21,784 bases of DNA from NCBI GenBank assembly GCA_029856365.1, contig JAHQWW010000062.1, positions 1-21,784 on the forward strand, in the 5' to 3' direction. The notes under the pieces are model-generated. The model made no database searches, was not told the DNA's origin, and was given only the letters and a program-made list of their open reading frames with translations. The DNA comes from Candidatus Hodarchaeota archaeon. GTDB lineage: Archaea > Asgardarchaeota > Heimdallarchaeia > Hodarchaeales > Hodarchaeaceae. Positions 1 through 21,195 of the stretch are shown here, piece by piece; positions within the stretch are counted from its first letter, which is position 1, and every line of letters begins with the position of its first letter. A program made the position numbers and the translations under genes.

Positions 1-3000
1 GCTTCCTTGGCGAAATTAATAGTTTTACTCACCGCATTGTCTACCCCTGATGTTTGGAATGCTGCTTGCATTCGGACATGCCACTCAGGGGAGAAATCAT
101 GAGCTGTGACAAAAATTTGGCGTATTTCTTCAGGTATCTCTGTAATTTCTGCTATTGAACCAGTTTTTGCAATCATTTCCATTAGTTCTTGTGAGTAGAA
201 TCCCTGATTTTTAGCAGTCTCTATGAAGAAGGGATATCCTTCCACTAAAATATCATCATCCAAAACTCGTCGTTCATAGGTCAGCATAAATAATGGTTCA
301 ATTCCACTTGAACAACCTGCAATGATCGATATGGTACCTGTCGGTGCTATTGTAGTTAATGTGGCATTTCGCATCATTGGATACTTTTCAGCAAAAATAC
401 TCTGGTCAAAATTGGGGAATGATCCCCGTTCTTGAGCCAATTTCTGAGATTCTCGAATCGCAATAGTATAGATGTATTTCATAATACGTTGTGCTAGCTC
501 AATCCCTTTTTGAGAATTGTAAGGAATACCTAATTTGATGAGTAAATCAGCAAAACCCATGACTCCTAGTCCAATCTTTCGGTTTGCTTTTGTCATTCGC
601 TCAATTTCAGGGAGTGGAAAGGTGGAGACATCAATCACATTATCCAAAAAACGCACAGCAAGGGGAACAACTCGTTCAAGCTTGCTATAATCGACATGGG
701 ATTTCAATGGATCGATATTATCCTTCTTTATCATCTTACTGAGATTGATAGACCCTAAATTACACGATTCGTACGCTAACAGAGGCTGTTCTCCACAGTT
801 CTGTGTTTTGACGAATTTGATATTCGTTCTCTCTCCAACTTGCTCTTCAAACCCTCCAATGAAAAAAGAGTGAAATTCATCCACTGTACCATTATAAACA
901 TCCTCCTTTCCTAGATATTCAACTTTTACAACTTTATGATTATACATGGTTGAGTGTTCTTTAAGCTCCCTATAACTTTTAAATCCAAATTTTGTTCCTA
1001 ATCTGAACGGGATAGAAGATTGTTTGCATAATCTTTCCCATTCCTTTTTAAAAGGTTCTCTGTCTAATTTTTCCTTCAATTCAAGATAACATTGTATTTG
1101 TTTCGTTCTTTTTTCTTCAGCAAGATTTTTGTATGTATTTTTTACACCAATAGTTCTTTTGATGATCATTTCTTTTTCTGAATTAAAATGCTTCATGAAA
1201 CATTTTCTGTTACAATAGCTGATTTCTCTTTCGTTAAAACTGATATGAAATACCTTACCACAATGCTCACAAGTCTTTTCAACCATAACACTATTGCCAT
1301 CTAAAAAGCATTTGAGATCTGTTTTTTGTTTACATTCTTTTAACTTTCTTAAGGCTCTCTGATGAAACCCTATTTGAGCTTTTTTGATATATGTCGGATC
1401 CTTCCATTTTTCATGAGATATCTTTGAGAGAAGGAGTTTTTCTTCTGGATTATTTTTATAAGATTGTATCCGTGATAAACTTATTTTTCTCTTTGTTTCT
1501 TCTGAAACTTTAACACCATATCTTGGGTTATTTTTTCCAACGGGGTGATAAAAGAGATTTTCTTCTTGGTACTTTTTCCACTTCTTCGGATCAGCTTTTA
1601 TTTGGAAGATGGGATTCTTTCTCCCTTTCATGGATATACTGTGTAAAGCATCATGTTCATCAACATGCATTATCTGAAGATTTTCTGGTGAATTATTTTC
1701 AGAATCAAAGTCTAAATGGTGAACTATATGATCTTCAGGTATTGGTTCATCGTTATTATGGAAAAATTTTGCAATTACTGTATGTTCTGATTTTTCAGAC
1801 CGACCTCGATTATACATTCTCATGTATTTCTTGTGGGGATTAACTGAAAATTTCCCTCTTTGAAATTGTAGTACTTTTGTTAAGATATGTAAACTGTCTC
1901 CAGATTGTAACTCATCTGTTCGTTTTATCGTTCCACTTCTAAGATAAAATCTATGGTTGGCCGTTGTTTTTAAGATCTCTCCTGAATCAAGATGTACTTG
2001 ATATACATGCACTTTTCTACCTGTTAATCTTGGTCTTCTCATTGACCTGACTGTTATTTTACCTTCTTCATCTTCTGTAAATACAGGAACATCACTTCCT
2101 TCCTCTGCTAATTGTTTTATTGGAACAGCTGACCTACCATCAGCTGTTGCTATCAATGTATCCCCTGTTATACAAGGATTTGTTGCCTCAATCTTACCTA
2201 CTTCAGGGGTTGGGTTAGTCCCATTTATTCTATCCAAAAAGACTATGCCTGGTTCTCCATTGGAATGAGCCATCTTGACGATTTCATCAAATACTACTCG
2301 AGCTCTCAATCGAGTAACTTCTTGGGAATTACGGGGATTGATGAGGGGATAATCGTCGTCATGAATTACTGCCTCCATAAATGCCTCAGTGAGCCCCACA
2401 GAGATGTTAAAATTATTTAAAGTGCTTAAATCTTCTTTACACCGAATGAAGGCCATGATATCAGGATGATCGACCCTTAATATTCCCATGTTGGCTCCAC
2501 GTCTTCGGTTATGAATGAGAATGCTATTAGCTACAAATTGATTTGAACCTGGAACTTCTATATCCATCGTATACGCTTTTGCCCATTCAACACTCTTAAC
2601 CTGCGTAAAATAATACTGGGGATCAGAAATCTTAGTAAAATGCTCATTATTACTAATAATATCAAATTTTTCTTGAAGAAATCTCAGTCTTTTTCTTGTT
2701 AAATTTCTTCTATGAGATGAATCCCCTATGTAATGCTGAATAGCTCTATAGAACCTTCTATCAGCTCCTCTCTTTCCTCTTCCTTTACCTGATCCTCTCC
2801 CAACATATTTGTAAAGTTGTCTTAATTTTTCTCCTTGGTTTGGTATTATATCATTGTACTCGAATGCTTTTTCATGGTACCTTGATTGAAATGTTGCTGT
2901 CTTCCTTTTTGATATAAATCCTATTTCCTCTTTAAATACTCTTAGACTTCTATCTGAGATGATTTTTAAGGTATAAATTGGTTTTTTCCCGTAACTATTA

Positions 3001-4367
3001 TCTCTTTTCTGCCGTACACTATAGCTAGATACAACATTTAATCCTAGTAATAACTGTTGTGTTTGTTCTATTAATTTTCGAGATGTGGAGTAGAATCTGG
3101 GATAACTGTTTGTATGTATATTCCCGTCTCCCTCAAACAAACCTTTTACAAAAGCTTTAGCTACTTCTGGATGAGACTGAAATATTTCTCTTGGAATGAA
3201 GGCTTCAGCTGATGATTCCTTCTTCCACCCCATATTTTCAAAAAATCTGTTTAGATCGTGAGAATAGAAAATTAAATCGCTCCAAGAAACATTATCCTCT
3301 TTCCTTCCAATTTTCAGGCCAAAAGAAAAAAGCATTAAATCTTCAATTCGATGTATTAAATCAGAATCTCTGTTATCAACACTAAAAATCATTCTTCCTC
3401 CAGTACTCAAGCAACCATCGGCCATATATAATCCTAAAATTTCACCAAGCTCAGGTGTCATCTTTTCTGGAATTTTAATGGGAGTAGCGTTGAAATGCTG
3501 TTCATCTATTTTTGGGAGGTGAATCTCTTGGCCATTATGACCTCCTAGTACAACAGTTACCCAATCTCCTTCTCGAATTTCATTAATAGTTTTCCAAATT
3601 TTTCCCCCTTTTTGATTGATACAAGCAATTTGATGATTATAAGTTGCTTCTAGATTTAATCCAATATCAGTTTTAAGCTTAAGAACTTCAGCTATACCAT
3701 TATCCATTGAAATTAAGGCATTATTATATGAATTTCCATCATAAACAAGCTCTCTTGTGAAGTTCTCTCCCATTGGGGGACAATCAAGTAATTTACCGAG
3801 TTTAATAACTCCTTTTGGAGTTCGGATGAAGCTATCAGCTGATACACATCCTCCTTGTTTAATGATCTCTGTAGCGGAATTGAAGACAGTCATGAAACTG
3901 ATCGGACCACTGGCAACTCCCCCAGTGGTTTGAACTTTATCATTGGCAGGACGAAGATGAGAAAAGGTAAAGCCAGTCCCTCCGCCTGATTTATGAATTA
4001 TTGCTGCATTTTTAATAGCGAGGAAGATAGAATTCATATCATCATAGACAGGCAAGACAAAACAAGCTGAAAGTTGATTGAGCTCTGTGCCCGCATTCAT
4101 CAAACAAGGTGAATTCGGGAGAAATTCTAAGTTAACCATCATGTTATAGAATTTTTCCTCATATAAAGTTGGATCGCTGCCATAAAGTGCTTCATTTGCT
4201 GCAATAGCCTTGGCTACTCGCTCAAAAAGTTGACCAGGTGTCTCAATAACCTCTCCTCGTTCATTCTGTCTCAAATAACGTTTCTCTAGGATAATTTTTG
4301 CGTTAGATGTGAGAATTGGCGGTTTTGGCTTCATAGACTTCTCTGATTCTTCTGAGATGAGAGTCAT
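1..4367 (-). CDS. nrdJ: Class II (adenosylcobalamin-dependent) ribonucleotide reductase precursor with two inteins; 3' end runs off the window
   Basis: Hand translation from ATG at 4367 is open to base 1 (at least 1455 codons). Motifs: ILEKRYL, FLPNSPCLMNAG, QLSACFV, HKSGGGTGF, ASGPISFM, KQGG/RRRGANMG, NFNISV, GEPGIVFLD, ATNP/CGEQPL, ESCNLGSINL, RKIGLGVMG, TIAPTGTISIIAGCSSGIEP, VDNAVSKTIN. No N-terminal ATP cone. Absent from the ORF track, presumably because no stop lies in the window. Confidence 0.96.
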   Translation of the reverse strand, partial: MTLISEESEKSMKPKPPILTSNAKIILEKRYLRQNERGEVIETPGQLFERVAKAIAANEALYGSDPTLYEEKFYNMMVNLEFLPNSPCLMNAGTELNQLSACFVLPVYDDMNSIFLAIKNAAIIHKSGGGTGFTFSHLRPANDKVQTTGGVASGPISFMTVFNSATEIIKQGGCVSADSFIRTPKGVIKLGKLLDCPPMGENFTRELVYDGNSYNNALISMDNGIAEVLKLKTDIGLNLEATYNHQIACINQKGGKIWKTINEIREGDWVTVVLGGHNGQEIHLPKIDEQHFNATPIKIPEKMTPELGEILGLYMADGCLSTGGRMIFSVDNRDSDLIHRIEDLMLFSFGLKIGRKEDNVSWSDLIFYSHDLNRFFENMGWKKESSAEAFIPREIFQSHPEVAKAFVKGLFEGDGNIHTNSYPRFYSTSRKLIEQTQQLLLGLNVVSSYSVRQKRDNSYGKKPIYTLKIISDRSLRVFKEEIGFISKRKTATFQSRYHEKAFEYNDIIPNQGEKLRQLYKYVGRGSGKGRGKRGADRRFYRAIQHYIGDSSHRRNLTRKRLRFLQEKFDIISNNEHFTKISDPQYYFTQVKSVEWAKAYTMDIEVPGSNQFVANSILIHNRRRGANMGILRVDHPDIMAFIRCKEDLSTLNNFNISVGLTEAFMEAVIHDDDYPLINPRNSQEVTRLRARVVFDEIVKMAHSNGEPGIVFLDRINGTNPTPEVGKIEATNPCITGDTLIATADGRSAVPIKQLAEEGSDVPVFTEDEEGKITVRSMRRPRLTGRKVHVYQVHLDSGEILKTTANHRFYLRSGTIKRTDELQSGDSLHILTKVLQFQRGKFSVNPHKKYMRMYNRGRSEKSEHTVIAKFFHNNDEPIPEDHIVHHLDFDSENNSPENLQIMHVDEHDALHSISMKGRKNPIFQIKADPKKWKKYQEENLFYHPVGKNNPRYGVKVSEETKRKISLSRIQSYKNNPEEKLLLSKISHEKWKDPTYIKKAQIGFHQRALRKLKECKQKTDLKCFLDGNSVMVEKTCEHCGKVFHISFNEREISYCNRKCFMKHFNSEKEMIIKRTIGVKNTYKNLAEEKRTKQIQCYLELKEKLDREPFKKEWERLCKQSSIPFRLGTKFGFKSYRELKEHSTMYNHKVVKVEYLGKEDVYNGTVDEFHSFFIGGFEEQVGERTNIKFVKTQNCGEQPLLAYESCNLGSINLSKMIKKDNIDPLKSHVDYSKLERVVPLAVRFLDNVIDVSTFPLPEIERMTKANRKIGLGVMGFADLLIKLGIPYNSQKGIELAQRIMKYIYTIAIRESQKLAQERGSFPNFDQSIFAEKYPMMRNATLTTIAPTGTISIIAGCSSGIEPLFMLTYERRVLDDDILVEGYPFFIETAKNQGFYSQELMEMIAKTGSIAEITEIPEEIRQIFVTAHDFSPEWHVRMQAAFQTSGVDNAVSKTINFAKE
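798..2174 (-). mobile_element. Intein 2 of NrdJ (459 aa) with HNH-type endonuclease, inserted at TNP|CGE immediately before the thiyl-radical Cys
   Basis: Starts CITGDTLIATADGR; KTTANHRF (block B); HNH motif HHLDFDSENNSPENLQIMHVDEHDALH (1641-1721); NUMOD3-like GKNNPRYGVKVSEETKRKISLS; C-x2-C-x15-C-x3-C (1200-1271); block F DVYNGTVDEFHSFFI; ends KTQN then +1 Cys. 1377 nt, in frame. Confidence 0.95.
2508..3848 (-). mobile_element. Intein 1 of NrdJ (447 aa) with LAGLIDADG homing endonuclease, inserted at KQGG|RRRGANM; +1 residue is Arg
   Basis: Starts CVSADSFIRTPKG (block A); EATYNHQI (block B TxxH); LGEILGLYMADG (3414-3449) and FVKGLFEGDG (3123-3152); ends YTMDIEVPGSNQFVANSILIHN. 1341 nt, in frame. 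Removal restores KQGGRRRGANMG. Confidence 0.95.
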
Positions 4368-4800
4368 AATTTTAGTCACTTTATTTAAAATGAAATGAGG
4401 TTAGGTTACAATAGTTCTATCTATTGAGAGTGAATTAGTCTTCCAAGAGGAGTCCAAACTAGAGTGTCTTTCCATTAATTGATTATGAAATATCATTTAA
4501 GAACCCAAAAAAATGATGGTGTACTAATAATGATTAAGCGGTTAGGAACAATAACAGCTCAAACCATTTTTGCTCCTCAAATCGCAGACTTGAGAACGCT
4601 CGATACTAATTAAAAAATTAATTCATTCCTTAGTAGTACGCAAAAATGTCGGATTTGATATTGGATAAAGATAATTTTTATGTGTATCACAAATTTTCGT
4701 TTTGACATGAAATAAGGTCGGATTAAAATGACTAGAAACTGATTGACAATTAGATGTAATAATCAGTAAGTACTGGGATATTACCTCGGAAATATGCTTG

Positions 4801-4850
4801 TTTTAAACCATCCATAATATCAAGTTCTTCAACCAACAAAAAGAGGTTGA
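4801..4850 (+). promoter_or_regulatory. Putative TATA box and ribosome-binding site of the RHH gene
   Basis: TTTTAAA at 4801-4807, about 55 nt before ATG 4860; GAGGTTGA at 4843-4850 resembles the archaeal SD GAGGTGA. Confidence 0.4.
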
Positions 4851-4859
4851 TAATCCAAG

Positions 4860-5045
4860 ATGATGAAACTTATAACAGTGCATCTACCAAATGATCAGGT
4901 ATTAGGACTTGACGAGTTAGTGCGCAGTGGACGGTACCCTAATCGGAGTGAAGCTATCCGCTTTGCTATCCGTGATATGCTGAAAGACGAATTGTGGAGC
5001 CTTCGTGCTAGTTCATTGATTCCCCAATCTCGAGAGGTTTATTAA
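4860..5045 (+). CDS. Ribbon-helix-helix (CopG/Arc/MetJ family) transcriptional regulator, CdrS-like
   Basis: 61 aa: alternating beta strand KLITVHL, helix A, then GRYPNRSEAIRFAIRDML typical of small archaeal RHH proteins; SD-like sequence upstream. Confidence 0.9.
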   Translation: MMKLITVHLPNDQVLGLDELVRSGRYPNRSEAIRFAIRDMLKDELWSLRASSLIPQSREVY

Positions 5046-5230
5046 TCCCACTATTGATTTCCAAGATAAGTAACTGACCAAAAGTGGGAGAAATAATCCT
5101 ACTATCAATAAGAGCAGTATATGATCAATGCTGTTTTTTCACAAAGAGCTAAAGATTCTTGATTAGTGTTACTCATTCCGAAACTGCATTTTAAGTAGTT
5201 GACTTTATTTAGTCTATTTTGGGCATTCTA

Positions 5231-5836
5231 ATGAATGAGAAAAGAACAGTTAAGCGTTGGCGAACTGTCAAGTCGAAAACTCCCATAATCGGAATTGATG
5301 ACGGGGGATTTGATCGGTTTTCTGAAGAAGATATAAATATCCCAGTTTTTGGCGTCATCATGAAAGGATCAGCATATGTTGATGGCATCATCCAATGTTA
5401 TCTTAAGAAAGATGATCCTCAAGCCACTACCACCATCACTCAGATGATCTTAGATTCAACGCATAAAAATCAGTTAAAAACAATATTTTTACAGGGGATC
5501 ACGATTGCTGGCTTTGGAGTTTTAGATATTGTTGAAATGTATGAAATAACGGGAATTCCTGTTATTGTTGTGCTTCGAAAATATCCCGATTATTTAAAAA
5601 TTAAAAGTGCTTTAGATAAGGCCTTTCCTACTGACCAAGATAGATGGCAAAGTATATTGCGTGCTGGAGAGCCGATAAAAGCGAAGAAGGATCCTATTCT
5701 TTTCCTCCAACTAGCTGGAATTCATCCAAAAGATGCTTATCTACTTATTAAGGCATGTACGGCCGTTGGTACTATTCCAGAAGCTTTGAGGATTGCTCAC
5801 TTCATTGGAGCAAGTTATTTTCATTATTCATATTAA
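5231..5836 (+). CDS. DUF99/UPF0215 family protein (endonuclease V-like fold)
   Basis: IIGIDDGGF, GVIMKG..VDG, D..AT, GITIAGFGVLDI, TGIPVIVV, IPEALRIAH. ATG 5231 preferred over TTG 5219. Confidence 0.88.
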   Translation: MNEKRTVKRWRTVKSKTPIIGIDDGGFDRFSEEDINIPVFGVIMKGSAYVDGIIQCYLKKDDPQATTTITQMILDSTHKNQLKTIFLQGITIAGFGVLDIVEMYEITGIPVIVVLRKYPDYLKIKSALDKAFPTDQDRWQSILRAGEPIKAKKDPILFLQLAGIHPKDAYLLIKACTAVGTIPEALRIAHFIGASYFHYSY

Positions 5837-5838
5837 AT

Positions 5839-5859
5839 GAAGCTTAAGCTTTAAGCTTC
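5839..5859. terminator. Inverted repeat between convergent DUF99 and GT2 genes, possible bidirectional terminator
   Basis: GAAGCTTAA-GCT-TTAAGCTTC: perfect 9-bp arms spanning most of the 14-nt gap and the GT2 stop codon. Confidence 0.4.
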
Positions 5860-7395
5860 TTGATGCCCTTTTTCTATCTGGGGAGTAGATATTTCCTCGT
5901 ACAGGAGAACAGCTGGTGCTAATAACCAGCTAAATCCGCCTCCAATTACAAATAAAGAAAAACTGCTTGATATGCACAAGATTCCGATTACAATTAAAAT
6001 TCCAGACAGACTGAAAATCAAAATGGAATTTCTAATCACATGTATTTCTCGATTCCAAACACTCCCTTCACTTAAAGGAGTATTTTTAAGTAATAATCCT
6101 TCTATTACACCAGAGATAATGAAAAGAAAAGCACCTAATGAGAATAAATAGAAAGGTATCAGCTGTAATAATCGTATAATCAAGTTTTGTTCCCTCTTCT
6201 CCCAAATAATGGCTAATAGAGCTGCTAAGGTATAAGATATACTTACCAGCGTCGGCATCAGGTATCCTAAATGAAATCCAAAGAACTCGCTTCGTAAAAA
6301 AGGGATATCATTTAGCATCATTATTGCCAAGAGTGTCACCAGAAAAACTATACTAATTCCTGAAAAAAAGGCCATTGCATTCAGGATCAATTCAAATTTT
6401 TTTTTCCATCCGAGGTAAGGTGAGGATAGGATCGATCGTAATCGTATTCGGAGGATATTACAAGCACCATGTGCCCAGCGCCACAACTGAGCTACTTGGG
6501 CTTTAGCTGTCTCAGGAACAAGTCCATACGACCCAATAAAATCTAGATATCTTCCCTCATAACCCAGCGATAGAATTTTCATTGATGTATCGATATCTTC
6601 AATCAATGTATCTTCAGAAAAGCCACCAATTTGAATTAGAACTTCTTTTCGGAAACAGCCTGTTGTACCATTAAAAAGTACAACCCCCCGTTGTTCTTTC
6701 GCTGCCTCAAAAACTTCATAAAACTGGGAATATAGAATAGAGTTGGCAGCTTGATATAATCTTTGTGTGTTTCTATAAGAGACTTTAGCTTGGATGTAAC
6801 CAACTTTTTTATCCGATATTGCCTTTGAGAATTCCGTCAATAAGTTTGGGACTGGGATGTGATCAGAATCTAAAATTACTATAAAATCCCCTCGAGTTAA
6901 ATTAAGCACAGCGTTAATATTTCCAGCTTTAAAGCCTCGTGTGTCTGGTTTATGATAAAATTGAATCTGATGTTTTTCGCAAAGCTCCTTTAACTGCTTA
7001 GTAACATTGGGATCCTGCCCATTGTCACTTACAATGATATCATAATGTGTATATTCTATTCTTAGGGCTCCCTTTATAGTCTTCTTAAGTACCGAATAGG
7101 GAGTACCATGGGAAGGTATAATAATAGTAAAAGACGGAGCTGTTATATAATTTTGATCTTGGGAGATAGATTGATACCGAAAATGAAACGCACCAGAAAT
7201 CATGTAAAAAAGATAGAATGCAAACAAAAATCCAAACAGTTCAATCATAAGAAGAAATACGTTAAGTAATATGGTTACAAAGTCTATATGAGAGAGGATC
7301 ATAATAATACTAGATATTGTATAAATAGGAATCACGATCAGAATAAGAACAGAGATGACAAGAGTTATCCACGATAAAAAGCGATATACCCACAT
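5851..7395 (-). CDS. Membrane-integral processive GT2 glycosyltransferase (cellulose synthase-like)
   Basis: D, DxD, D, QxxRW signature: VSDNG, FKAGNIN, LDSDH, FNGTTGCFR, TLIED, QLWRW; two N-terminal and about five C-terminal hydrophobic helices; no room for a PilZ domain. Confidence 0.9.
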   Translation of the reverse strand: MWVYRFLSWITLVISVLILIVIPIYTISSIIMILSHIDFVTILLNVFLLMIELFGFLFAFYLFYMISGAFHFRYQSISQDQNYITAPSFTIIIPSHGTPYSVLKKTIKGALRIEYTHYDIIVSDNGQDPNVTKQLKELCEKHQIQFYHKPDTRGFKAGNINAVLNLTRGDFIVILDSDHIPVPNLLTEFSKAISDKKVGYIQAKVSYRNTQRLYQAANSILYSQFYEVFEAAKEQRGVVLFNGTTGCFRKEVLIQIGGFSEDTLIEDIDTSMKILSLGYEGRYLDFIGSYGLVPETAKAQVAQLWRWAHGACNILRIRLRSILSSPYLGWKKKFELILNAMAFFSGISIVFLVTLLAIMMLNDIPFLRSEFFGFHLGYLMPTLVSISYTLAALLAIIWEKREQNLIIRLLQLIPFYLFSLGAFLFIISGVIEGLLLKNTPLSEGSVWNREIHVIRNSILIFSLSGILIVIGILCISSSFSLFVIGGGFSWLLAPAVLLYEEISTPQIEKGHQEA

Positions 7396-8311: not shown

Positions 8312-9316
8312 CTATTTTTCTCGTTCGGCAAGAAATTGGACTAAAATTTTTAGAAAAATAAACAATTCACTTATTTGGCTATCTTCACTATTCTGTGCCG
8401 CTTGGATGGCTTCTAATTCCTGTATACAGAACTTGGCATACTTATCTCTAACCTCTCTTACTTTATGATTTACAGAACGGAAGGCTTCTATAACAAAGTT
8501 TATTTCTTCTTCTGTTTTCTCTCCAACTGGTTTATTATAAATCTGTTTAATCTTAGAAGCATATTTTGTTTGTAAAACGAAATACAGAAATAAATTCCGC
8601 TTTGATTCTTGAATATCCCAATATGGGACTTTTCCGAATTGTTCTGGGTTTCCTAGTATGTCTAAGTAGTCATCTTGAATTTGAAATGCAATACCAGCAG
8701 CAACGATAGCATCATGTAATCTATCAGTAAAAATATCTCCACGGTTGGCTGCTAAACAACCTAATTTGACACAACCAGCAAAAACAATAGCTGTTTTCAG
8801 CTCCATAATTTTGATAACATGATCCATGTCAAAATCAAAATTGTGATTTAATCTATCTTCTAATTCAATAGCATTGCCTAAACTGACTTGATATGCATAA
8901 TCAAGAACAAGATTTAGAGTAGGTTCATTCTTTAGTAAGGTCAAAGCATAAGCATGAAGAACATCCCCATCATGAAGTGCACGATCTGCTCCATGAAGTA
9001 TATGAAAGGCTTTTTTTCCGCGTCTAATGGGAGCACCATCAATTAAATCATCATGAATCAAGGTCATGTTATGTAGAAGTTCAATGGCAATAGCAGCATT
9101 ATACGATCTCTCCATTGCCACTTCACGATATTCAGTGTCTCTAACTAACAAATCAGTTGTTACTACTATGAATGCTGGACGAAGTCGTTTTCCTTTGGTT
9201 GTTAGAATGAAATTATGGATTCGCTCTCTTGTTGGACTAACAAGTCCATTTATTGCTTGAGTGAGTTTTTTGTTTAATTGTTCCATAATTTCTGCATCTA
9301 TGAACTCTAGTACCAC
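8312..9316 (-). CDS. trans-Polyprenyl diphosphate synthase (IdsA/GGPP synthase family)
   Basis: GKRLRP, first Asp-rich motif LIHDDLID..RRGK, KTA, second motif FQIQDDYLD. GTG 9316 preceded by GAGGG is preferred; the track start is TTG 9346. Confidence 0.9.
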   Translation of the reverse strand: MVLEFIDAEIMEQLNKKLTQAINGLVSPTRERIHNFILTTKGKRLRPAFIVVTTDLLVRDTEYREVAMERSYNAAIAIELLHNMTLIHDDLIDGAPIRRGKKAFHILHGADRALHDGDVLHAYALTLLKNEPTLNLVLDYAYQVSLGNAIELEDRLNHNFDFDMDHVIKIMELKTAIVFAGCVKLGCLAANRGDIFTDRLHDAIVAAGIAFQIQDDYLDILGNPEQFGKVPYWDIQESKRNLFLYFVLQTKYASKIKQIYNKPVGEKTEEEINFVIEAFRSVNHKVREVRDKYAKFCIQELEAIQAAQNSEDSQISELFIFLKILVQFLAEREK

Positions 9317-9370
9317 GAAAAAAGCCCTCTTTTTCGCATTACACAAAATCTTGTGTTTCTTCAGTGCGCT

Positions 9371-9839: not shown

Positions 9840-11066
9840 TTGCTTTTTCAGTTCTGTCCTTATTGTGGTAGGAAAACTCCAGAGAAGAACTTTTGTGTCT
9901 ATTGCGGAAAACAATTATCAAATACTAATATTTGTCTGTATTGTCACTCTCCGATTCCTATGAATGCCACTTCCTGTCCTTTTTGTGGCTTTAATGGCTT
10001 CCAATCGAGATTCAACAATACATTGGAAGATTTTTCATATCTCAACTGGGTTTGTACTAATCTCCGTTTAGCAATTTTTGTCATTTTTCTTCTTTCAACA
10101 TACTCCCTTACCCAATTAATGGTTGGATTTGTTTTCATTATCTTTTTTTCAGCTGATTTTATTTATGATAATGCTAATTTTCCCTTTTTTTCTCTGGTCA
10201 TAATGCTAGTTAGTAGTGTAATACTGATTGTGATTATAAATAAATGGTTAATATTCTCATCGGGAGAAAAACCTCCTAAAATAGACCAGGTTAAAGTCCT
10301 TTTCCTCTTACTCATCGTACTCATAGCATCTATCTCTATCATTGAAATTCTTGTTACACTCACCGATTTTGGATTGGATCTGATTAATGTAGATCCTTCT
10401 CTATCTTCTCCTTATGATGATTTCTTTAGAACTCCTCTTAATATTCTCGCTTTCACAATTTTGGTTACTATAATTGGCCCGATTTTTGAGGAGCTCGTTT
10501 TTCGCCATTTTGCAATATCTATGATGTTGAAACAATGTCAATCGAAGATTTTCATAATTAGTACAAGTGCATTAATCTTCAGTCTTTCACACACAACAAC
10601 AAACTTATTAGAAAGCCTTCGTTATACAATTTTACATATGGTAGCTACCTTCTCTATAGGAGTTATTTTGGGCATAATTTTTCTCCGCTGGGGATTAAAA
10701 TACGCAATTATTTTTCACTCTTTTTGGAACCTATTTTCCCTCGTAGTCCAATTACTGATTATTTATGAATCAGTTTTGTTAATAGATCTGATTTTATTAG
10801 TCTCCATGGCTATTACTTTCATCCTTACAGTTTATTTTCTTTTTTCGATTCGAACATCTCTACGTAGAATTATTTCTGAAATTACTCTCCCAACAAGACG
10901 TGAACTTCTTTTAATTTTAGTAAATTTCTTTCTGATCTTAACTTATGAGCTTTTTTTGCCTTTAATATTGTTAACTGCTGGTTCTAATTTTTTAACTGCA
11001 GGATTCACCTTCTTATATCAGTTTTGCGGTTTTTCAATCGGATTAATGTTAATTAACCGAGAATAA
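9840..11066 (+). CDS. Double zinc ribbon + CPBP (Abi/Rce1-like, CAAX protease type II) intramembrane protease
   Basis: Four CxxC pairs (CPYC, CVYC, CLYC, CPFC); FEELVFR (EExxxR), FSLSH (FxxxH), HSFWN (HxxxN); about ten hydrophobic helices. TTG start with TTTAATATA about 30-40 nt upstream. Confidence 0.9.
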   Translation: MLFQFCPYCGRKTPEKNFCVYCGKQLSNTNICLYCHSPIPMNATSCPFCGFNGFQSRFNNTLEDFSYLNWVCTNLRLAIFVIFLLSTYSLTQLMVGFVFIIFFSADFIYDNANFPFFSLVIMLVSSVILIVIINKWLIFSSGEKPPKIDQVKVLFLLLIVLIASISIIEILVTLTDFGLDLINVDPSLSSPYDDFFRTPLNILAFTILVTIIGPIFEELVFRHFAISMMLKQCQSKIFIISTSALIFSLSHTTTNLLESLRYTILHMVATFSIGVILGIIFLRWGLKYAIIFHSFWNLFSLVVQLLIIYESVLLIDLILLVSMAITFILTVYFLFSIRTSLRRIISEITLPTRRELLLILVNFFLILTYELFLPLILLTAGSNFLTAGFTFLYQFCGFSIGLMLINRE

Positions 11067-13641: not shown

Positions 13642-16062
13642 GTGAAGAGGCCTTTGAATTTTCAAAATAAGCTACAGAATTTTATAATCGAAATTCCTCC
13701 CGAGCAGCTTCTCGCAGGTGTCATTACTATTGTTTTAGCTGTAATTTTCTTTCTAGAATTGAGAAAATATTTGAAATACCATGCTTTTCCCGACCTCATG
13801 GAACTTTCGGGTATTGGTGTTATGGCCACTGGACTTTTTTCTTTAACTGGTGATATTCTTCTTGCGGGTTTAGCGGGAATCCTGGCGTTAATGATAATCG
13901 GTTCTTTCGAAGTGCGAGAAAACCCCATATGGTTTCGAATGATGGTAACTTTTACAATTAGTTATGGGTTTTTTTTCTTAATGGTTGCTTTAGGTTTTCT
14001 CACAACTAAGGTATTTTCTTTATTAGGAGTTACAATCAAAGAATTTCTACTTTCTCTGGGATTATCCCCCAATATCGATATACAGCAGTTTTTTGTAGGA
14101 ATTGGATATAATCTAGTCCTCTGGATCATGATCTTAACAGCATTCTTAGTATTTGGTAAGAAGTTTATTGTTGTAACCCGATTCATTAGTCCTCAAATGG
14201 TTTATCTTGTGCTTTACTTAGTAGCATTACTGGTAATCCTACAAATTGATCTTCCCGAAATTACAAAATATTTCGCCATTTTTATTGTTAATATTCTTAT
14301 TTACTTAGTTTCAGGTCCATTATTATCCTTTTTATTTGGAATACAACCCCTAGAAGATGAGAGAGTAGAAAATATAATCAATGAAGTACAAACTAAGGTA
14401 CAAACACCGATTCGAAAAATCGGCATTGTTAAAGCGCCAATCCTTAATGCATTTGCATTTGGACCATGGTTTGATCAAAGAATTGCTTATATTGCCTCAG
14501 ACCTAAGTCAATTCACAGATGCGGAGATACGTGGAATAACCGCACATGAGCTGATACATGTTCAGAAAAAACATACCCTTTGGTTATTAGGCCTTACTGC
14601 TGTTGAACTAGTAATCAAGGCTGCGATTGATGCTCCATCTACATATTGGGAATTTGTTTTAGGAATGAGTCAAACTTGGGATTTTCTAAGTTTTTGGTTA
14701 TTCAATATAGCATTATTCGCAGTTTTACTTACTTTTGTGAAGATAATGGAAGGACAGGCTGATAAGATCACGAGGGAAAAGGGTTTTGGCATTGATTTAG
14801 CGGAATCTTTATTCCGCTTGGAAGGTTTTTACTATGGAATTGCAGGGGAGATTGGTTTCAATACTCAATTAATGACTGGAAAAACACGGTCTAAAGATGA
14901 GAATATTCGTTTTATGGGAGACCAAGCCTATTATCTCTATCGTAATCTTGCTCCAAGTCGGATGACTTGTTTTATGAACCTTATTGCATCACATCCTCTC
15001 ACTTCCATTCGCCTAGCATTGCAGTTGGACCATTCCATTGGGGCTATTAAAGCGGGATTTATGATATGGTTCCTGTTAATTCCAGGATTGCGAAAACGAA
15101 CTATACGTAGACTCCAGAAAAGCCACCAACAAATGGCTGAACTGCTATCTCAAAAATATTCCAGAGATTTCGGTACAATAAATGACTACTTGGAAATAAC
15201 ATTTGAGGAATATTGGGCTAAATACTTTGTAGGACATTATGTGTTAGCTAAACCATGGTTATCTGAAGGTAACGCTTATTGGGGTAAAATAACAAGTTTC
15301 TCTCCCACTGAGAATATAGTATCTCCTATTGAGTTTGAAATGGAAATTTCTAATGGAAACATTGTCAGAATTCCTAAAAGCGACTACAACTTTATTCTAG
15401 CAGAACCACAACACAAATACTTCACAAAAAAAGGGAACACAGTGATTTTAGATCAAGTGCAAATAGAAAAAGGTAAATTTCGAAAATTTCATTTCATTAA
15501 AAATGGAGAAGAAACTTCATCACGCTCCATAGGATTGGATACATCAGAATTTCAACAACGAACATATTGGTTGGTCTATAAAAATGGTATAATACAACCA
15601 TGGAGTTTGAAAGAGGTACGTTTAGCAAAGGATTTCAAAAAAACTGTATTTATTTTTGAAGATTCTATTCAAAATGAATATCAATTTTTAGGCAAGGAAC
15701 TAGTTATTTCATCCCCTCCTTTAGTGCAAATGATTAATGCTAAAAATTGGGAAAAAGAAAAGAGCTTTTTCCAACTTTTACAAAACTTAAGTGAACCATT
15801 TATCCTCTATGATAAAGAAGACATCGACATTGGTGCTCCCTGTAAAGTAAATACTGTCTTGGAAGATAATACAATAGAACTCTTGGAAGGAAGAACCCTC
15901 CGAACAATTAAACCTAATATGATTGATGCATTAATTCTAGATTATCCTTTTTATCTAATTAATTTCCGAAATGAAATGGGATTTGGCAACATTCTCACAT
16001 TGAAATTGTTTAATAGAGGCTTAAAGACAAAATATGTAGGTCTTAATAGTTATCTTTTTTGA
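13642..16062 (+). CDS. M48 family (HtpX/Ste24-like) membrane zinc metalloprotease with N-terminal multi-TM region and long soluble C-terminal region
   Basis: NAFAFG, AHELIH (HExxH), MEGQAD (third ligand Glu), SHPLTSIRL; about 230 hydrophobic residues before and about 320 polar beta-rich residues after the core. Confidence 0.85.
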   Translation: MKRPLNFQNKLQNFIIEIPPEQLLAGVITIVLAVIFFLELRKYLKYHAFPDLMELSGIGVMATGLFSLTGDILLAGLAGILALMIIGSFEVRENPIWFRMMVTFTISYGFFFLMVALGFLTTKVFSLLGVTIKEFLLSLGLSPNIDIQQFFVGIGYNLVLWIMILTAFLVFGKKFIVVTRFISPQMVYLVLYLVALLVILQIDLPEITKYFAIFIVNILIYLVSGPLLSFLFGIQPLEDERVENIINEVQTKVQTPIRKIGIVKAPILNAFAFGPWFDQRIAYIASDLSQFTDAEIRGITAHELIHVQKKHTLWLLGLTAVELVIKAAIDAPSTYWEFVLGMSQTWDFLSFWLFNIALFAVLLTFVKIMEGQADKITREKGFGIDLAESLFRLEGFYYGIAGEIGFNTQLMTGKTRSKDENIRFMGDQAYYLYRNLAPSRMTCFMNLIASHPLTSIRLALQLDHSIGAIKAGFMIWFLLIPGLRKRTIRRLQKSHQQMAELLSQKYSRDFGTINDYLEITFEEYWAKYFVGHYVLAKPWLSEGNAYWGKITSFSPTENIVSPIEFEMEISNGNIVRIPKSDYNFILAEPQHKYFTKKGNTVILDQVQIEKGKFRKFHFIKNGEETSSRSIGLDTSEFQQRTYWLVYKNGIIQPWSLKEVRLAKDFKKTVFIFEDSIQNEYQFLGKELVISSPPLVQMINAKNWEKEKSFFQLLQNLSEPFILYDKEDIDIGAPCKVNTVLEDNTIELLEGRTLRTIKPNMIDALILDYPFYLINFRNEMGFGNILTLKLFNRGLKTKYVGLNSYLF

Positions 16063-17767: not shown

Positions 17768-17976
17768 CAACTTAACTGTTAACGTTTCATCATAAGAGAG
17801 ATCAAATTTCTGTTATTAATTTTTTTTGAATTTTCGACCAGACTTTTCGATTAGTTCGAAAGGATAATATTTTCAAAGAAGCTCAAAGTGAGATGGCAAG
17901 GTTTCATCAATCAAAATGTCTCCAACCATTATTCAGCTTAAAATTACTTTCAGGTACCAATCTATGTGAAAAAGCG

Positions 17977-20900
17977 ATGAAAATTCATAACAATATAGTA
18001 AACATAATATATCACTCTGGTGTAATCGTATTCCTCCTCATGTTGGTTATTCTATCTACGTCTGTTACACTTAATGTAGATACCACTGCATTCACAGATG
18101 AGGAGAAGATACAAGATGTGTCGCCAGATATAACACCTAATAATTTGAAAATAAAACTTACTGATGATGATATTCAGGTAGAAAATATTAGTTTTGACGT
18201 TGAAGCTCTATTTAACTATGTAGCTTCGCTATACAGAAAAGAAGGGATATTTTTAGAAGCATATGGGGGATATGCTACGTCTGTTGGTACTTATAAAGCT
18301 CTCTCTATATTAAGGTTCTTGGGTTTGGATTATTATCAATTTGGTTCTGAGTGGGAAGATAAAGAGGTAACTATTGCTGATAAATTGCTAGATCTTAGAG
18401 ATAAAGCTGGTTCAGGAGGGTATTATCTTTCCCCAGAAACTAATTCCCCCTCGTTAGAGGGAACATTTGGGGTGACCACTTCTCTCTGGATTATGAATGA
18501 ATTGCCTTTGAAACTAAAGCCGATTACACCAAGATTGCTAGATTTTGTATATAATACAACTTTTGATAATGAAAATTTCGGTTTTCATGAAGTTGGCCAA
18601 GAAAACTGTTCAATCAAAGCAACATTTCAAGCCTTAACAATTTTGGACTTGATTCGTAAGATTGTTATTATTCCCGAATTATATGATGAAAAAAATACAC
18701 CTTTAATCAATAAAACTGTTTTAGATTTTATGACAGATTATTCTTTAAATATCTTCAAATTTCTCAACAGTTCGTGGATTAATAACTCATATTTTTATTC
18801 AAACACCCCTTACCAAACTAAAATCGAAGATACATGGTACGCACTCCAATCAATTAAGATCTTAGATGATTATGGGAAATTTTTAAACGTAGATTTACCT
18901 AAAAACCTCACTGATTACCAATATCCTGTTATTAATTGGCTAAAATCATTACAAAAGACAAAAGGGCCCACCAAAGGAGGTTTTGGGACATCAGAACATG
19001 CAAATGTCTCTGAGACTGGTTTAACTTATGCAATCCTAAATCTTTTCAATTCCACTAAAGAAATAGATGTCAATCATACTGAAACAATATCGTTTATTTA
19101 TTCATCTCAATTTCTTAAACGGGAAAATCGAACTTACCGTTCTTCGGAATTACCTCATTTAGGAGGATTTGGTCCTAACAATGCAACGTACCGTGATAGT
19201 GAATCAAGTAAACGGGTAAACGTCCATGATACATATTATGCTGTATTAACTCTTCTTCTATCGGGTGATATTTTTAACTCCATTAACCTCACCTTAGAAA
19301 CAACGCACTATCAGGAGATTATATCAAAATATCCTGCTAGCATAAATAATTCAAACTATATCGTTCAAGGAGAGCTGGGTGTTATCGAACAGTATTTCAA
19401 AATCTTTAATTACAAGTCTCATGGATCCCTAGAATTAACAACTATTGTAGACAATTGGAATCTTACTCATCCAGACTATACTGAAACTAATGAAAATTTT
19501 TATGGGAAATCTAATGCACAATATGTTGTAAACTTAGAGAATGATTCACAAGCTAATTTCAATTGGACATTAGGTTCTCATAAACTTATTAATATACTTT
19601 CAATTCGAAACTTACCAATCATTCAATCACCAGTATATTATCTCAATTCATCTTTGTATGTAAGTTATACAAACGAGGTGAAATTTAATTCAACACTCAT
19701 CAAACCAGGAGGTAACATCAATACAACGATTTTCTTTCAAAATCGTTCTCTAATCACCTATTCAAAGCAAAATATTACAGATGGAACAGTTAGTGTATAT
19801 TTAAAATCACCAAATAGGGAGACTTTTATTTGGTTTGATTTAGTACCAATCAATACCACCATAGAAGCGATAACATACCTCTGGAAAGTTCCTGATCAAG
19901 CTCTATTAGGAACCTGGGAACTTACTCTAATTCTTAATCAATCCAATTTTTCAACCACTTATTCACTTCAAATTGAAGTCACAGATACTGTATTTTTTTA
20001 TAATATGTCCCAAATGCCTCAATACTACCCTGGTGAGGATATGAACCTAAATGTTTCATTGAAATATACAAATGGTAACTTTACTCCGAATGCAAACGCA
20101 TCAATGGCATTTACTAGCAATTTAACCCAAAAAGAAGTTTTCAATTTTACACTACATTATTTGGAGGGTAATATTTATACAACAAGTGGTATCAATTGTC
20201 CCACTCGCTTCTTATATGGATTCTATAATGTTTCTATCAGATTAACATGGAATTCATCTTCAGAAGTGCTAGTTAACACCGTTTCTAATAGTAGTCTTCC
20301 AGTTATCTATATTAAGGGTGTTCCAACTGTATCTGAGGCTTTCTTTAAAACTGATTACCGAGATATTCTTCCATTAGTAGAAAATAATTTGTTTTATTAT
20401 GGGGAAACTCTCAATTTGACTTTAAAAATTGGTTTTAAATCCAATTCTACCATTAATAGTGTTGAAAATGCTGAAAGTGTGACTGTGAAGGGAGGATTGA
20501 TTAACAATAGCCACCCTTCATCTTTTGTTCAGCTATTTCAAATCTCTCATCGTAAGAATATCCTTTCTTTAACGGGTCTAATTAACACCAATTTTCCTAA
20601 TGACACCCTAGGAACACGATTCCAAATAAAATCAGAATATAACAATTCCTATAGTTACATTAGAAACCCAGTGGACACAGTTAAGCATGCAGCTTATAAC
20701 TTTTCTCTGATTGGAACCTTTGAAATTAGAGACATTAATTATGTAGCAACAGAGATATCCAATGGCCTTTATCAGTATGCTCTTGATACAACTTCAGTTA
20801 TTTCAGTTTCATTTAAAGTCTACAATAATGAATTAGATGATACCCCTATTCAAGTCCCGAGTCTAAATCTTTACGGTATATTAGACATTCAGAATAAAAT

Positions 20901-21195
20901 TGGGACTTTAAATCAGTCCTTACCTGGTGTAACATCAGGAGTAGATCAAAATGGAACAACAATCTATTTTCTATCAATACCAACTTCAGGTTTAAGTACA
21001 AATAAATATGAAATTTCGATTTACACTTGGACTGCAATCAGAAACCATTTAAAAATTGGTAATCTGTATCCAGGTTTTTCAATCATAAAGACTTTTTCTC
21101 CACAACCGATAATTCAAGTACATGAGGTATTAATTCTCATTTCAGGGCTAGTTTTGATTGTACTAATTTATTTGAATGTTAGGAAATTTTGGTAA
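17977..21195 (+). CDS. Large cell-surface protein: signal/anchor, prenyltransferase/squalene-cyclase-type alpha-barrel repeats, beta-sandwich stalk, C-terminal TM anchor
   Basis: Six repeats such as VINWLKSLQK..GGFG..NVSETGLTYAIL and ISFIYSSQ..GGFG..NVHDTYYAVLTL; Ig-like segments (YLWKVPDQALLGTWELTL); roughly 40 N-x-S/T sequons; C-terminal VLILISGLVLIVLIYL-NVRKFW. ATG 17977 places the hydrophobic segment at a normal signal position (track start 17893). Confidence 0.8.
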   Translation: MKIHNNIVNIIYHSGVIVFLLMLVILSTSVTLNVDTTAFTDEEKIQDVSPDITPNNLKIKLTDDDIQVENISFDVEALFNYVASLYRKEGIFLEAYGGYATSVGTYKALSILRFLGLDYYQFGSEWEDKEVTIADKLLDLRDKAGSGGYYLSPETNSPSLEGTFGVTTSLWIMNELPLKLKPITPRLLDFVYNTTFDNENFGFHEVGQENCSIKATFQALTILDLIRKIVIIPELYDEKNTPLINKTVLDFMTDYSLNIFKFLNSSWINNSYFYSNTPYQTKIEDTWYALQSIKILDDYGKFLNVDLPKNLTDYQYPVINWLKSLQKTKGPTKGGFGTSEHANVSETGLTYAILNLFNSTKEIDVNHTETISFIYSSQFLKRENRTYRSSELPHLGGFGPNNATYRDSESSKRVNVHDTYYAVLTLLLSGDIFNSINLTLETTHYQEIISKYPASINNSNYIVQGELGVIEQYFKIFNYKSHGSLELTTIVDNWNLTHPDYTETNENFYGKSNAQYVVNLENDSQANFNWTLGSHKLINILSIRNLPIIQSPVYYLNSSLYVSYTNEVKFNSTLIKPGGNINTTIFFQNRSLITYSKQNITDGTVSVYLKSPNRETFIWFDLVPINTTIEAITYLWKVPDQALLGTWELTLILNQSNFSTTYSLQIEVTDTVFFYNMSQMPQYYPGEDMNLNVSLKYTNGNFTPNANASMAFTSNLTQKEVFNFTLHYLEGNIYTTSGINCPTRFLYGFYNVSIRLTWNSSSEVLVNTVSNSSLPVIYIKGVPTVSEAFFKTDYRDILPLVENNLFYYGETLNLTLKIGFKSNSTINSVENAESVTVKGGLINNSHPSSFVQLFQISHRKNILSLTGLINTNFPNDTLGTRFQIKSEYNNSYSYIRNPVDTVKHAAYNFSLIGTFEIRDINYVATEISNGLYQYALDTTSVISVSFKVYNNELDDTPIQVPSLNLYGILDIQNKIGTLNQSLPGVTSGVDQNGTTIYFLSIPTSGLSTNKYEISIYTWTAIRNHLKIGNLYPGFSIIKTFSPQPIIQVHEVLILISGLVLIVLIYLNVRKFW

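Follow-up and report, generated by a model that had tools for sequence, protein, structure and literature searches.

Inteins without a +1 nucleophile in archaeal ribonucleotide reductase: an arginine junction in an Asgard archaeon and the lineage to which it belongs

We analyzed an intein (intein 1) that interrupts nrdJ, the gene for a class II, adenosylcobalamin-dependent (B12) ribonucleotide reductase (RNR), in an Asgard archaeon (Candidatus Hodarchaeota). The gene lies at one end of a window of 21,784 nucleotides (contig C72, positions 1-21784), which belongs to a 4.24-Mb metagenome-assembled genome (MAG) with a completeness of 83.6%. Textbook protein splicing needs a Cys, Ser or Thr as the first residue of the C-extein (+1) for its steps 2 and 4 (PMC4031507). 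Intein 1 is followed by Arg. It is near certain that intein 1 is a genuine LAGLIDADG intein that is intact and has recently been mobile, and that it is inserted in loop 2 of the only RNR detectable in its carrier. It is likewise near certain that it belongs to a single, old lineage in which the C-extein begins with the host's own Lys, Arg, Ile, Met or Val. The original prediction, which had been made from the sequence of this window, described an intact intein, an Arg codon unlikely to be an error and a native excision product, all of which held. Its treatment of the case as one odd allele did not, since the nucleophile proved to be missing as a rule from a monophyletic lineage that counts more than 120 inteins. 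As for maturation of these precursors, we see about an even chance that it would proceed by ligation, through aminolysis by the freed alpha-amine after Asn cyclization.

The nrdJ gene forms one open frame on the minus strand, truncated on its 3' side where the contig stops (Table 1), with an ATG at 4365-4367 as the probable start. Contig C72 begins (window positions 1-3) inside the gene, about 225 codons short of the stop of P0002, the full-length protein on record (1684 amino acids). P0002 is identical in sequence and was recorded on a 145-kb contig; the break of nrdJ in our window is probably an assembly break. The host was identified as a class II RNR by its matches to PF00317 and PF02867 and to Thermotoga maritima NrdJ (1xje, E 8e-38). 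Within the protein, intein 1 occupies residues 178-624 with the junctions TEIIKQGG/CVSADS...NSILIHN/RRRGANMG, where slashes mark the splice sites. The corresponding codons are AAA CAA GGA GGA/TGT at the N junction and CAT AAC/CGA AGA CGT at the C junction (CAT AAC at 2508-2513). The same junctions, with Arg encoded by CGA at +1, had been claimed in the original prediction (IKQGG/CVSAD...ILIHN/RRRGANM) and were correct in every detail when re-read in the DNA. Based on the alignment with T. maritima NrdJ, the insertion maps between residues 205 and 206 of the stretch K202-Q203-G204-S205-R206-R207-R208-G209, which we take to be the specificity loop 2. In RNRs, loop 2 carries the effector signal to the substrate site.

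Intein 1 shows every defining class 1 feature tested here except the +1 nucleophile. Cys1, the block B motif T69-Y-N-H72, D429 of block F (YTMDIEV, intein residues 426-432) and H446-N447 of block G (ILIHN, residues 443-447) are all present, each being 96-100% conserved in the clade described below, while the Cys, Ser or Thr required at +1 is replaced by Arg (CGA). Both LAGLIDADG motifs were found as well, in agreement with the intact intein that had been predicted. Assignment to class 2 (Mja KlbA type, with Ala1 and a +1 Cys that attacks the N junction) was rejected, since Cys1 is present and a +1 nucleophile is absent. Class 3 was rejected on account of the lacking WCT motif, the Asp at position 4 of block F, the Ile/Val before the penultimate His and the presence of Cys1. 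An AlphaFold2 (AF2) model of intein 1, calculated from a 61-sequence alignment, had a predicted local distance difference test score (pLDDT) of 90.4 and a predicted template modeling score (pTM) of 0.91. When this model was searched with Foldseek, the top matches were complete inteins bearing a homing endonuclease (HEN), namely TliVMA (7qss, E 2e-27), PhoVMA, PI-PfuI, PI-TkoII and PI-SceI. Further, PF14528 matches intein 1, PF07591 (pretoxin-HINT) gave no match, and a sequence search of the PDB returned no close solved relative.

Table 1. Coordinates of nrdJ, its exteins and inteins, and the motifs of intein 1 in the window (aa, amino acids; clade percentages refer to 75 non-redundant members)
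Feature	Position	Strand	Evidence or remark
nrdJ, class II adenosylcobalamin-dependent RNR	3..4379	-	PF00317, PF02867; P0002 at 100% identity
N-extein, ends ...TEIIKQGG, Gly-Gly at -2/-1	3849..4367	-	aligns to T. maritima NrdJ up to residue 205
Intein 1, 447 aa, HINT + LAGLIDADG homing endonuclease, Cys1 to His-Asn	2508..3848	-	AF2 model, Foldseek
Cys1 (TGT), block A nucleophile for N-S acyl shift	3846..3848	-	Cys in 100% of clade
Block B TYNH, intein aa 69-72	3633..3644	-	clade: Thr 100%, His 96%
LAGLIDADG motif 1 LGLYMADGC, intein aa 138-146	3411..3437	-	catalytic Asp in 95% of clade
LAGLIDADG motif 2 GLFEGDGN, intein aa 236-243	3120..3143	-	catalytic Asp in 97% of clade
Blocks F and G, YTMDIEVPGSNQFVANSILIHN, block F Asp and terminal His-Asn	2508..2573	-	clade: Asp/Glu 97%, His 100%, Asn 100%
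+1 residue Arg (CGA), Cys/Ser/Thr expected	2505..2507	-	relatives AGG, CGC, CGT; intein-free alleles also Arg
Middle extein RRGANMG...ATNP, between both inteins	2175..2504	-	
Intein 2, 459 aa, HNH/NUMOD3 endonuclease, NP/CITGD...KTQN/CGEQ, canonical Cys +1	798..2174	-	
C-extein CGEQPL..., cut by contig end	3..797	-	

There is practically no chance that Thr, Ser or Cys in fact stands at +1 and is masked by an error of sequencing or assembly or by a variant genetic code, and nothing beyond the oddity of the Arg itself speaks for this. Three relatives (L001-L003) encode their +1 Arg as AGG, CGC and CGT which, together with the CGA of the window, makes four codons in four genomes. Because the relatives use different Arg codons, the residue is kept at the protein level. 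CGA also occupies the extein positions 54, 1267 and 1337, at which Arg is invariant among the homologues, and thus has its usual meaning of Arg in this organism. Sequencing error and codon reassignment were both ruled out by these synonymous codons and invariant positions, which bears out the earlier judgment that a simple error is improbable. The identical P0002 on its 145-kb contig and the lineage-wide occurrence of Lys, Arg, Ile, Met or Val at +1 point in the same direction. As also stated in the original prediction, CGA is at least two substitutions away from any Thr, Ser or Cys codon.

The Arg is, in addition, the residue that belongs to the host. Intein-free alleles of close relatives read KQGG-R-RRGANMG, which equals the predicted product of exact excision (KQGGRRRGANM). 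Because these alleles carry Arg at this position, the native host sequence is what exact excision leaves behind. The intein-free protein P0122 (778 amino acids) is 95% identical to the window's protein over the extein segment between the two inteins, and across intein-free NrdJ proteins the position is taken by Arg, Thr, Lys, Met, Val or Phe. A shifted intein boundary was rejected, as sliding both junctions never yielded a +1 nucleophile together with the 11-residue host motif KQGGxRRGANM.

Using the intein and its flanks as query, a search of 5.8 billion proteins returned 744 matches. Among the best 120 of these, all but four have a non-nucleophilic +1 residue, mostly Lys, with Arg in Asgard archaea and some Ile or Met. 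Thr is found at +1 only in the four most distant ones (35-40% identity), which end in ...SHN/T. An exhaustive HMMER search of 1.84 billion cluster representatives added further members, one of them with Val, while a pattern scan of genome contigs yielded three true relatives only. Both junctions could be mapped for 169 inteins at this site. Lys, Arg, Ile, Met or Val follows 126 of them and Thr or Ser the other 43, so that the Arg at +1 is not isolated.

When 174 inteins (non-redundant at 85% identity) were placed in a FastTree phylogeny, the non-nucleophile inteins formed one clade with a Shimodaira-Hasegawa (SH)-like support of 100, and the +1 trait required 2 changes on the tree compared with a mean of 56 after shuffling. 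The same clade was recovered by IQ-TREE under the LG+C20 mixture model with 63 sequences (SH-like approximate likelihood ratio test, 99). Canonical Thr/Ser inteins of the same site group in other clades. Among the named carriers are Asgard archaea of the Heimdall/Hod group, Micrarchaeota, Woesearchaeota, Aenigmarchaeota, Nanobdellota, Bathyarchaeia, Methanoperedens and Thermoplasmata. Conservation was calculated over 75 non-redundant clade members, in all of which Cys1, the block B Thr, the penultimate His and the terminal Asn are retained. The block B His, an acidic residue in block F and both LAGLIDADG Asp residues are nearly invariant (Table 1). Across the same 75 members, no extra conserved Cys, Ser or Thr was found in the splicing domain. 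The clade is set apart by Arg9, Asn71 (TxNH), Gly103, Phe438 (Tyr elsewhere) and Leu444-Val445 (Val-Ser/Thr in sister groups).

Intein 1 shows signs of recent transfer. Comparing the window with L001, the fraction of identical codons at conserved residues is about 0.65-0.96 in both inteins and 0.4-0.65 in the exteins. Intein dS (synonymous substitutions per synonymous site) is 0.47 in this comparison, whereas the synonymous sites of the exteins are saturated; in likeness at such sites, intein 2 surpasses even intein 1. Out of 20 species-level genomes in the same genus, 4 carry intein 1 and 15 have no match. The remaining one (G250) matches at 29% identity only, which probably reflects a different intein. 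Intein-free alleles with nearly identical exteins exist.

The gene is maintained in its carriers. No frameshifts or stops were found in more than 120 homologues, and the ratio of nonsynonymous to synonymous substitution (dN/dS, Nei-Gojobori) was 0.12-0.16 for intein 1 and 0.05-0.09 for the flanking exteins where synonymous sites are unsaturated, which indicates strong purifying selection on the exteins. In its own MAG, the intein-bearing nrdJ is the sole match to the RNR barrel, and searches of this 83.6% complete genome with PF02867, PF13597 and PF00268 found no second RNR (no NrdD and no R2). Six other carriers were searched with PF02867 and PF13597, again with no second RNR found. The five other Asgard carriers are 92-99% complete, two of them as single contigs, and in the closed 773-kb genome of the Nanobdellota archaeon YN1 (AP031373) the intein-bearing NrdJ is the only RNR found. 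This protein (P0245) has the junctions KQGG/C...LIHN/KRRGANMG and thus Lys at +1. Dispensability of the gene through a second RNR was rejected on these grounds. Because no other RNR was found, the carriers must derive a working enzyme from this precursor, and a route to mature RNR other than textbook splicing probably exists. A dead gene, which the original prediction had left as a possibility, has become very unlikely in light of the selection on the exteins, the dN/dS of the intein and the status of the enzyme as the only RNR found. The YN1 NrdJ (locus L013, gene at 1001-5950) also has an ATP-cone.

A possible route is offered by the type A bacterial intein-like (BIL) domains, for which thioester formation, Asn cyclization and attack by the freed amine have been proposed in this order (Dassa et al. 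2004 and Aranko et al. 2013, as reviewed in PMC4031507). Applied to intein 1, Cys1 would form the usual Gly(-1)-S-Cys1 thioester, after which the terminal Asn would cyclize without a branched intermediate and release the alpha-amine of Arg+1. This amine would then attack the unhindered glycyl thioester and directly produce a native Gly-Arg peptide bond. It would be positioned by the active site of the intein and by the exteins, which are assumed to have folded already. Both junction residues would sit in one short loop of a barrel able to fold around the intein, keeping the new N-terminus near the thioester. The -1 residue is an invariant Gly, and Gly gives the least hindered thioester; this invariant residue and the shared short loop should favor aminolysis. 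Because the +1 side chains vary (Lys, Arg, Ile, Met, Val), the alpha-amine is the only nucleophile common to all members. The original prediction had raised aminolysis by the alpha-amine, a two-chain enzyme and a conditional switch, mechanisms that sequence analysis cannot tell apart; of these, aminolysis alone has an experimental precedent, in the type A BIL domains. Somewhat more tentatively, the loop-2 inteins, being mobile, endonuclease-bearing and fixed in the sole RNR of many archaea, may represent a fourth mechanistic class of true inteins, which would ligate without a +1 side-chain nucleophile and be templated by the folded RNR barrel at Gly-Gly.

Two other sources of a nucleophile were considered. 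Attack by the Lys or Arg side chain was ruled out by the Ile, Met and Val members nested in the same clade. A hidden internal nucleophile similar to that of class 3 inteins was rejected as well, there being no conserved extra Cys in the splicing domain; the one Cys specific to the clade, at position 146, belongs to LAGLIDADG motif 1.

Several points weigh against ligation by aminolysis. When canonical inteins are mutated at +1, cleavage is usually all that is left. That a peptide bond is formed at all, and in which order the steps would follow, is what we infer from the sequences, and the positions that distinguish the clade include no obvious new catalytic group. In the P0244 type (P0244 and P0409-P0411, from four metagenome assemblies), which is nested in the clade and reads KQG/C...LLVHN/SFRRGAMMG, the junction has moved upstream by one residue, which places a host Ser at +1; T. 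maritima has Ser205 at the same host position. This suggests that a nucleophile is still preferred where the host offers one. The P0244-type junction has the appearance of a natural reversion to the canonical arrangement. Further, BIL domains, which likewise lack a +1 nucleophile, give mainly cleavage products, these outweighing the spliced product (PMC7664689, PMC4031507). The conserved Cys1 and His-Asn would fit double cleavage equally well and, because both outcomes need these residues, sequence data cannot separate them. In such a double cleavage, the N junction would be opened by hydrolysis or thiolysis and the C junction by Asn cyclization, with no ligation, leaving a non-covalent two-chain RNR nicked between residues 205 and 206. 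We consider this outcome unlikely, though a serious contender. A functional two-chain class I RNR is known from phage Aeh1 (NrdA-a/NrdA-b), but it is split at another position and requires special tail sequences, and 0 of 1200 nrdA genes are split, which points to a strong pressure for a continuous chain (PMC3045599). New charged termini in loop 2 should be costly in view of its signaling role, and the same genus also contains intein-free alleles in which the loop is uninterrupted. Among the sequences retrieved there was none with the appearance of an nrdJ split at this site, a dedicated search not having been run.

Removal of the intein might also depend on outside factors, for instance a ligase or protease of the cell, a thiol relay through small molecules, redox state or temperature, which would make it a conditional switch on the supply of deoxyribonucleoside triphosphates (dNTPs). 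Only indirect points speak for this: in other inteins, Cys1 thioester chemistry is redox-sensitive (e.g., PMC6195587), and the hosts of the lineage are very different archaea. The same breadth of hosts, which span Asgard, DPANN, Thermoplasmata, Methanoperedens and Bathyarchaeia and include YN1 with its 773-kb genome, makes a shared dedicated helper unlikely, and no conserved neighbor gene is apparent in the window; we regard such dependence as improbable. Very little credence is given to an intein that is never removed, with the RNR working despite a 447-residue insertion in loop 2, or to a non-functional gene with dNTPs obtained from elsewhere. DPANN carriers such as YN1 do rely on their host for many metabolites (PMC11420986). 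However, the invariance of Cys1, the block B Thr and His-Asn, and the 96% conservation of the block B His, would be unexplained if no chemistry were needed. The strong purifying selection on the exteins and the frames free of frameshifts and stops also argue against it, as does the lack of any other RNR found in six Asgard genomes of free-living type (completeness 84-99%).

The nearest known counterparts of intein 1 are the canonical class 1 LAGLIDADG inteins of the same site, with the pattern QGG/C...[VI][ST]HN/[TS]RRGA (such as P0239, P0100, P0106 and P0121). They share its host gene and insertion point, the HINT and LAGLIDADG domains, Cys1, TxxH, the block F Asp and His-Asn, at 35-40% identity. 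They differ in having Thr or Ser at +1 and group apart from the non-nucleophile clade. Their penultimate His is preceded by Ser/Thr, that of the clade of intein 1 by Val/Ile; further, they have Tyr438 and a residue other than Arg at position 9, whereas intein 1 has Phe438 and Arg9. With respect to fold, the HEN-bearing inteins TliVMA and PhoVMA (7qss, 7qst), PI-PfuI (1dq3, an RNR intein), PI-TkoII (2cw7) and PI-SceI have the same two-domain architecture. Foldseek E-values against this group range from 2e-27 to 1e-11 with TM-scores of up to 0.72, and sequence similarity lies in the endonuclease domain. These structural matches come from other hosts or sites and are only 10-19% identical in sequence to intein 1. 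To our knowledge, all of them precede a Cys, Ser or Thr nucleophile.

BIL domains are small, lack an endonuclease, do not home and are found in variable regions of bacterial, often secreted, proteins. In contrast, intein 1, at 447 residues, is a homing intein that retains its LAGLIDADG domain intact and interrupts an essential archaeal enzyme at a conserved site; it lacks the PF07591 pretoxin-HINT signature and shows the signs of recent transfer described above. What it has in common with type A BIL domains (Amitai 2003; Dassa 2004; Aranko 2013, PDB 2lwy) is Cys1, the C-terminal His-Asn, the absence of a +1 nucleophile and the proposed route of thioester formation, Asn cyclization and amine attack (PMC4031507, PMC7664689). 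In reviews, a Cys, Ser or Thr at +1 is given as a requirement of every intein class. In the searchable full-text literature, with subscription papers and InBase outside its scope, we found no true intein described as being without a +1 nucleophile. Nor had any intein with Arg or Lys at +1 at this site been characterized there, a finding that the original prediction had named as grounds for its refutation.

If aminolysis takes place, the +1 rule would not be absolute for true inteins, and nature would possess a traceless ligation that needs no Cys, Ser or Thr at the junction. The +1 requirement constrains intein-based protein engineering, where a scar residue remains, and scarless ligation at Gly-Xaa junctions could then be developed from this natural lineage. 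If instead the mature enzyme consists of two chains, RNRs would have a new and widespread architecture, with the nick in the substrate-specificity loop. Because YN1 is co-cultured with Sulfurisphaera ohwakuensis (PMC11420986) and its genome is closed, this carrier is readily available for experiments.

The window's nrdJ contains a second intein (protein residues 736-1194) with the junctions ATNP/CITGD...VKTQN/CGEQ. It adjoins the NP/CGEQ cysteine of the RNR, and its excision restores the NPCGE thiyl-radical motif of NrdJ. Its endonuclease is of the HNH/NUMOD3 rather than the LAGLIDADG type, and it ends in Gln-Asn (KTQN), the penultimate His being absent. Some relatives have nrdJ frames of 2400-2750 amino acids, such as G211:C52 (2581), G127:C5 (2758), P0006 (2426) and P0023 (2495), lengths that imply four or five inteins per gene. 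In these long-frame relatives, the non-nucleophile intein shares its precursor with canonical inteins.

Elsewhere in the window we noted a polyprenyl synthase (8312-9346), an Rce1-like protease of the CAAX type that carries a double zinc ribbon (9840-11066), an M48 (Ste24-family) peptidase of 806 amino acids (13642-16062) and a protein of 1100 amino acids that weakly matches the prenyltransferase alpha-alpha toroid (17893-21195). The four genes resemble a eukaryote-style set for prenylation and CAAX processing in an Asgard archaeon.

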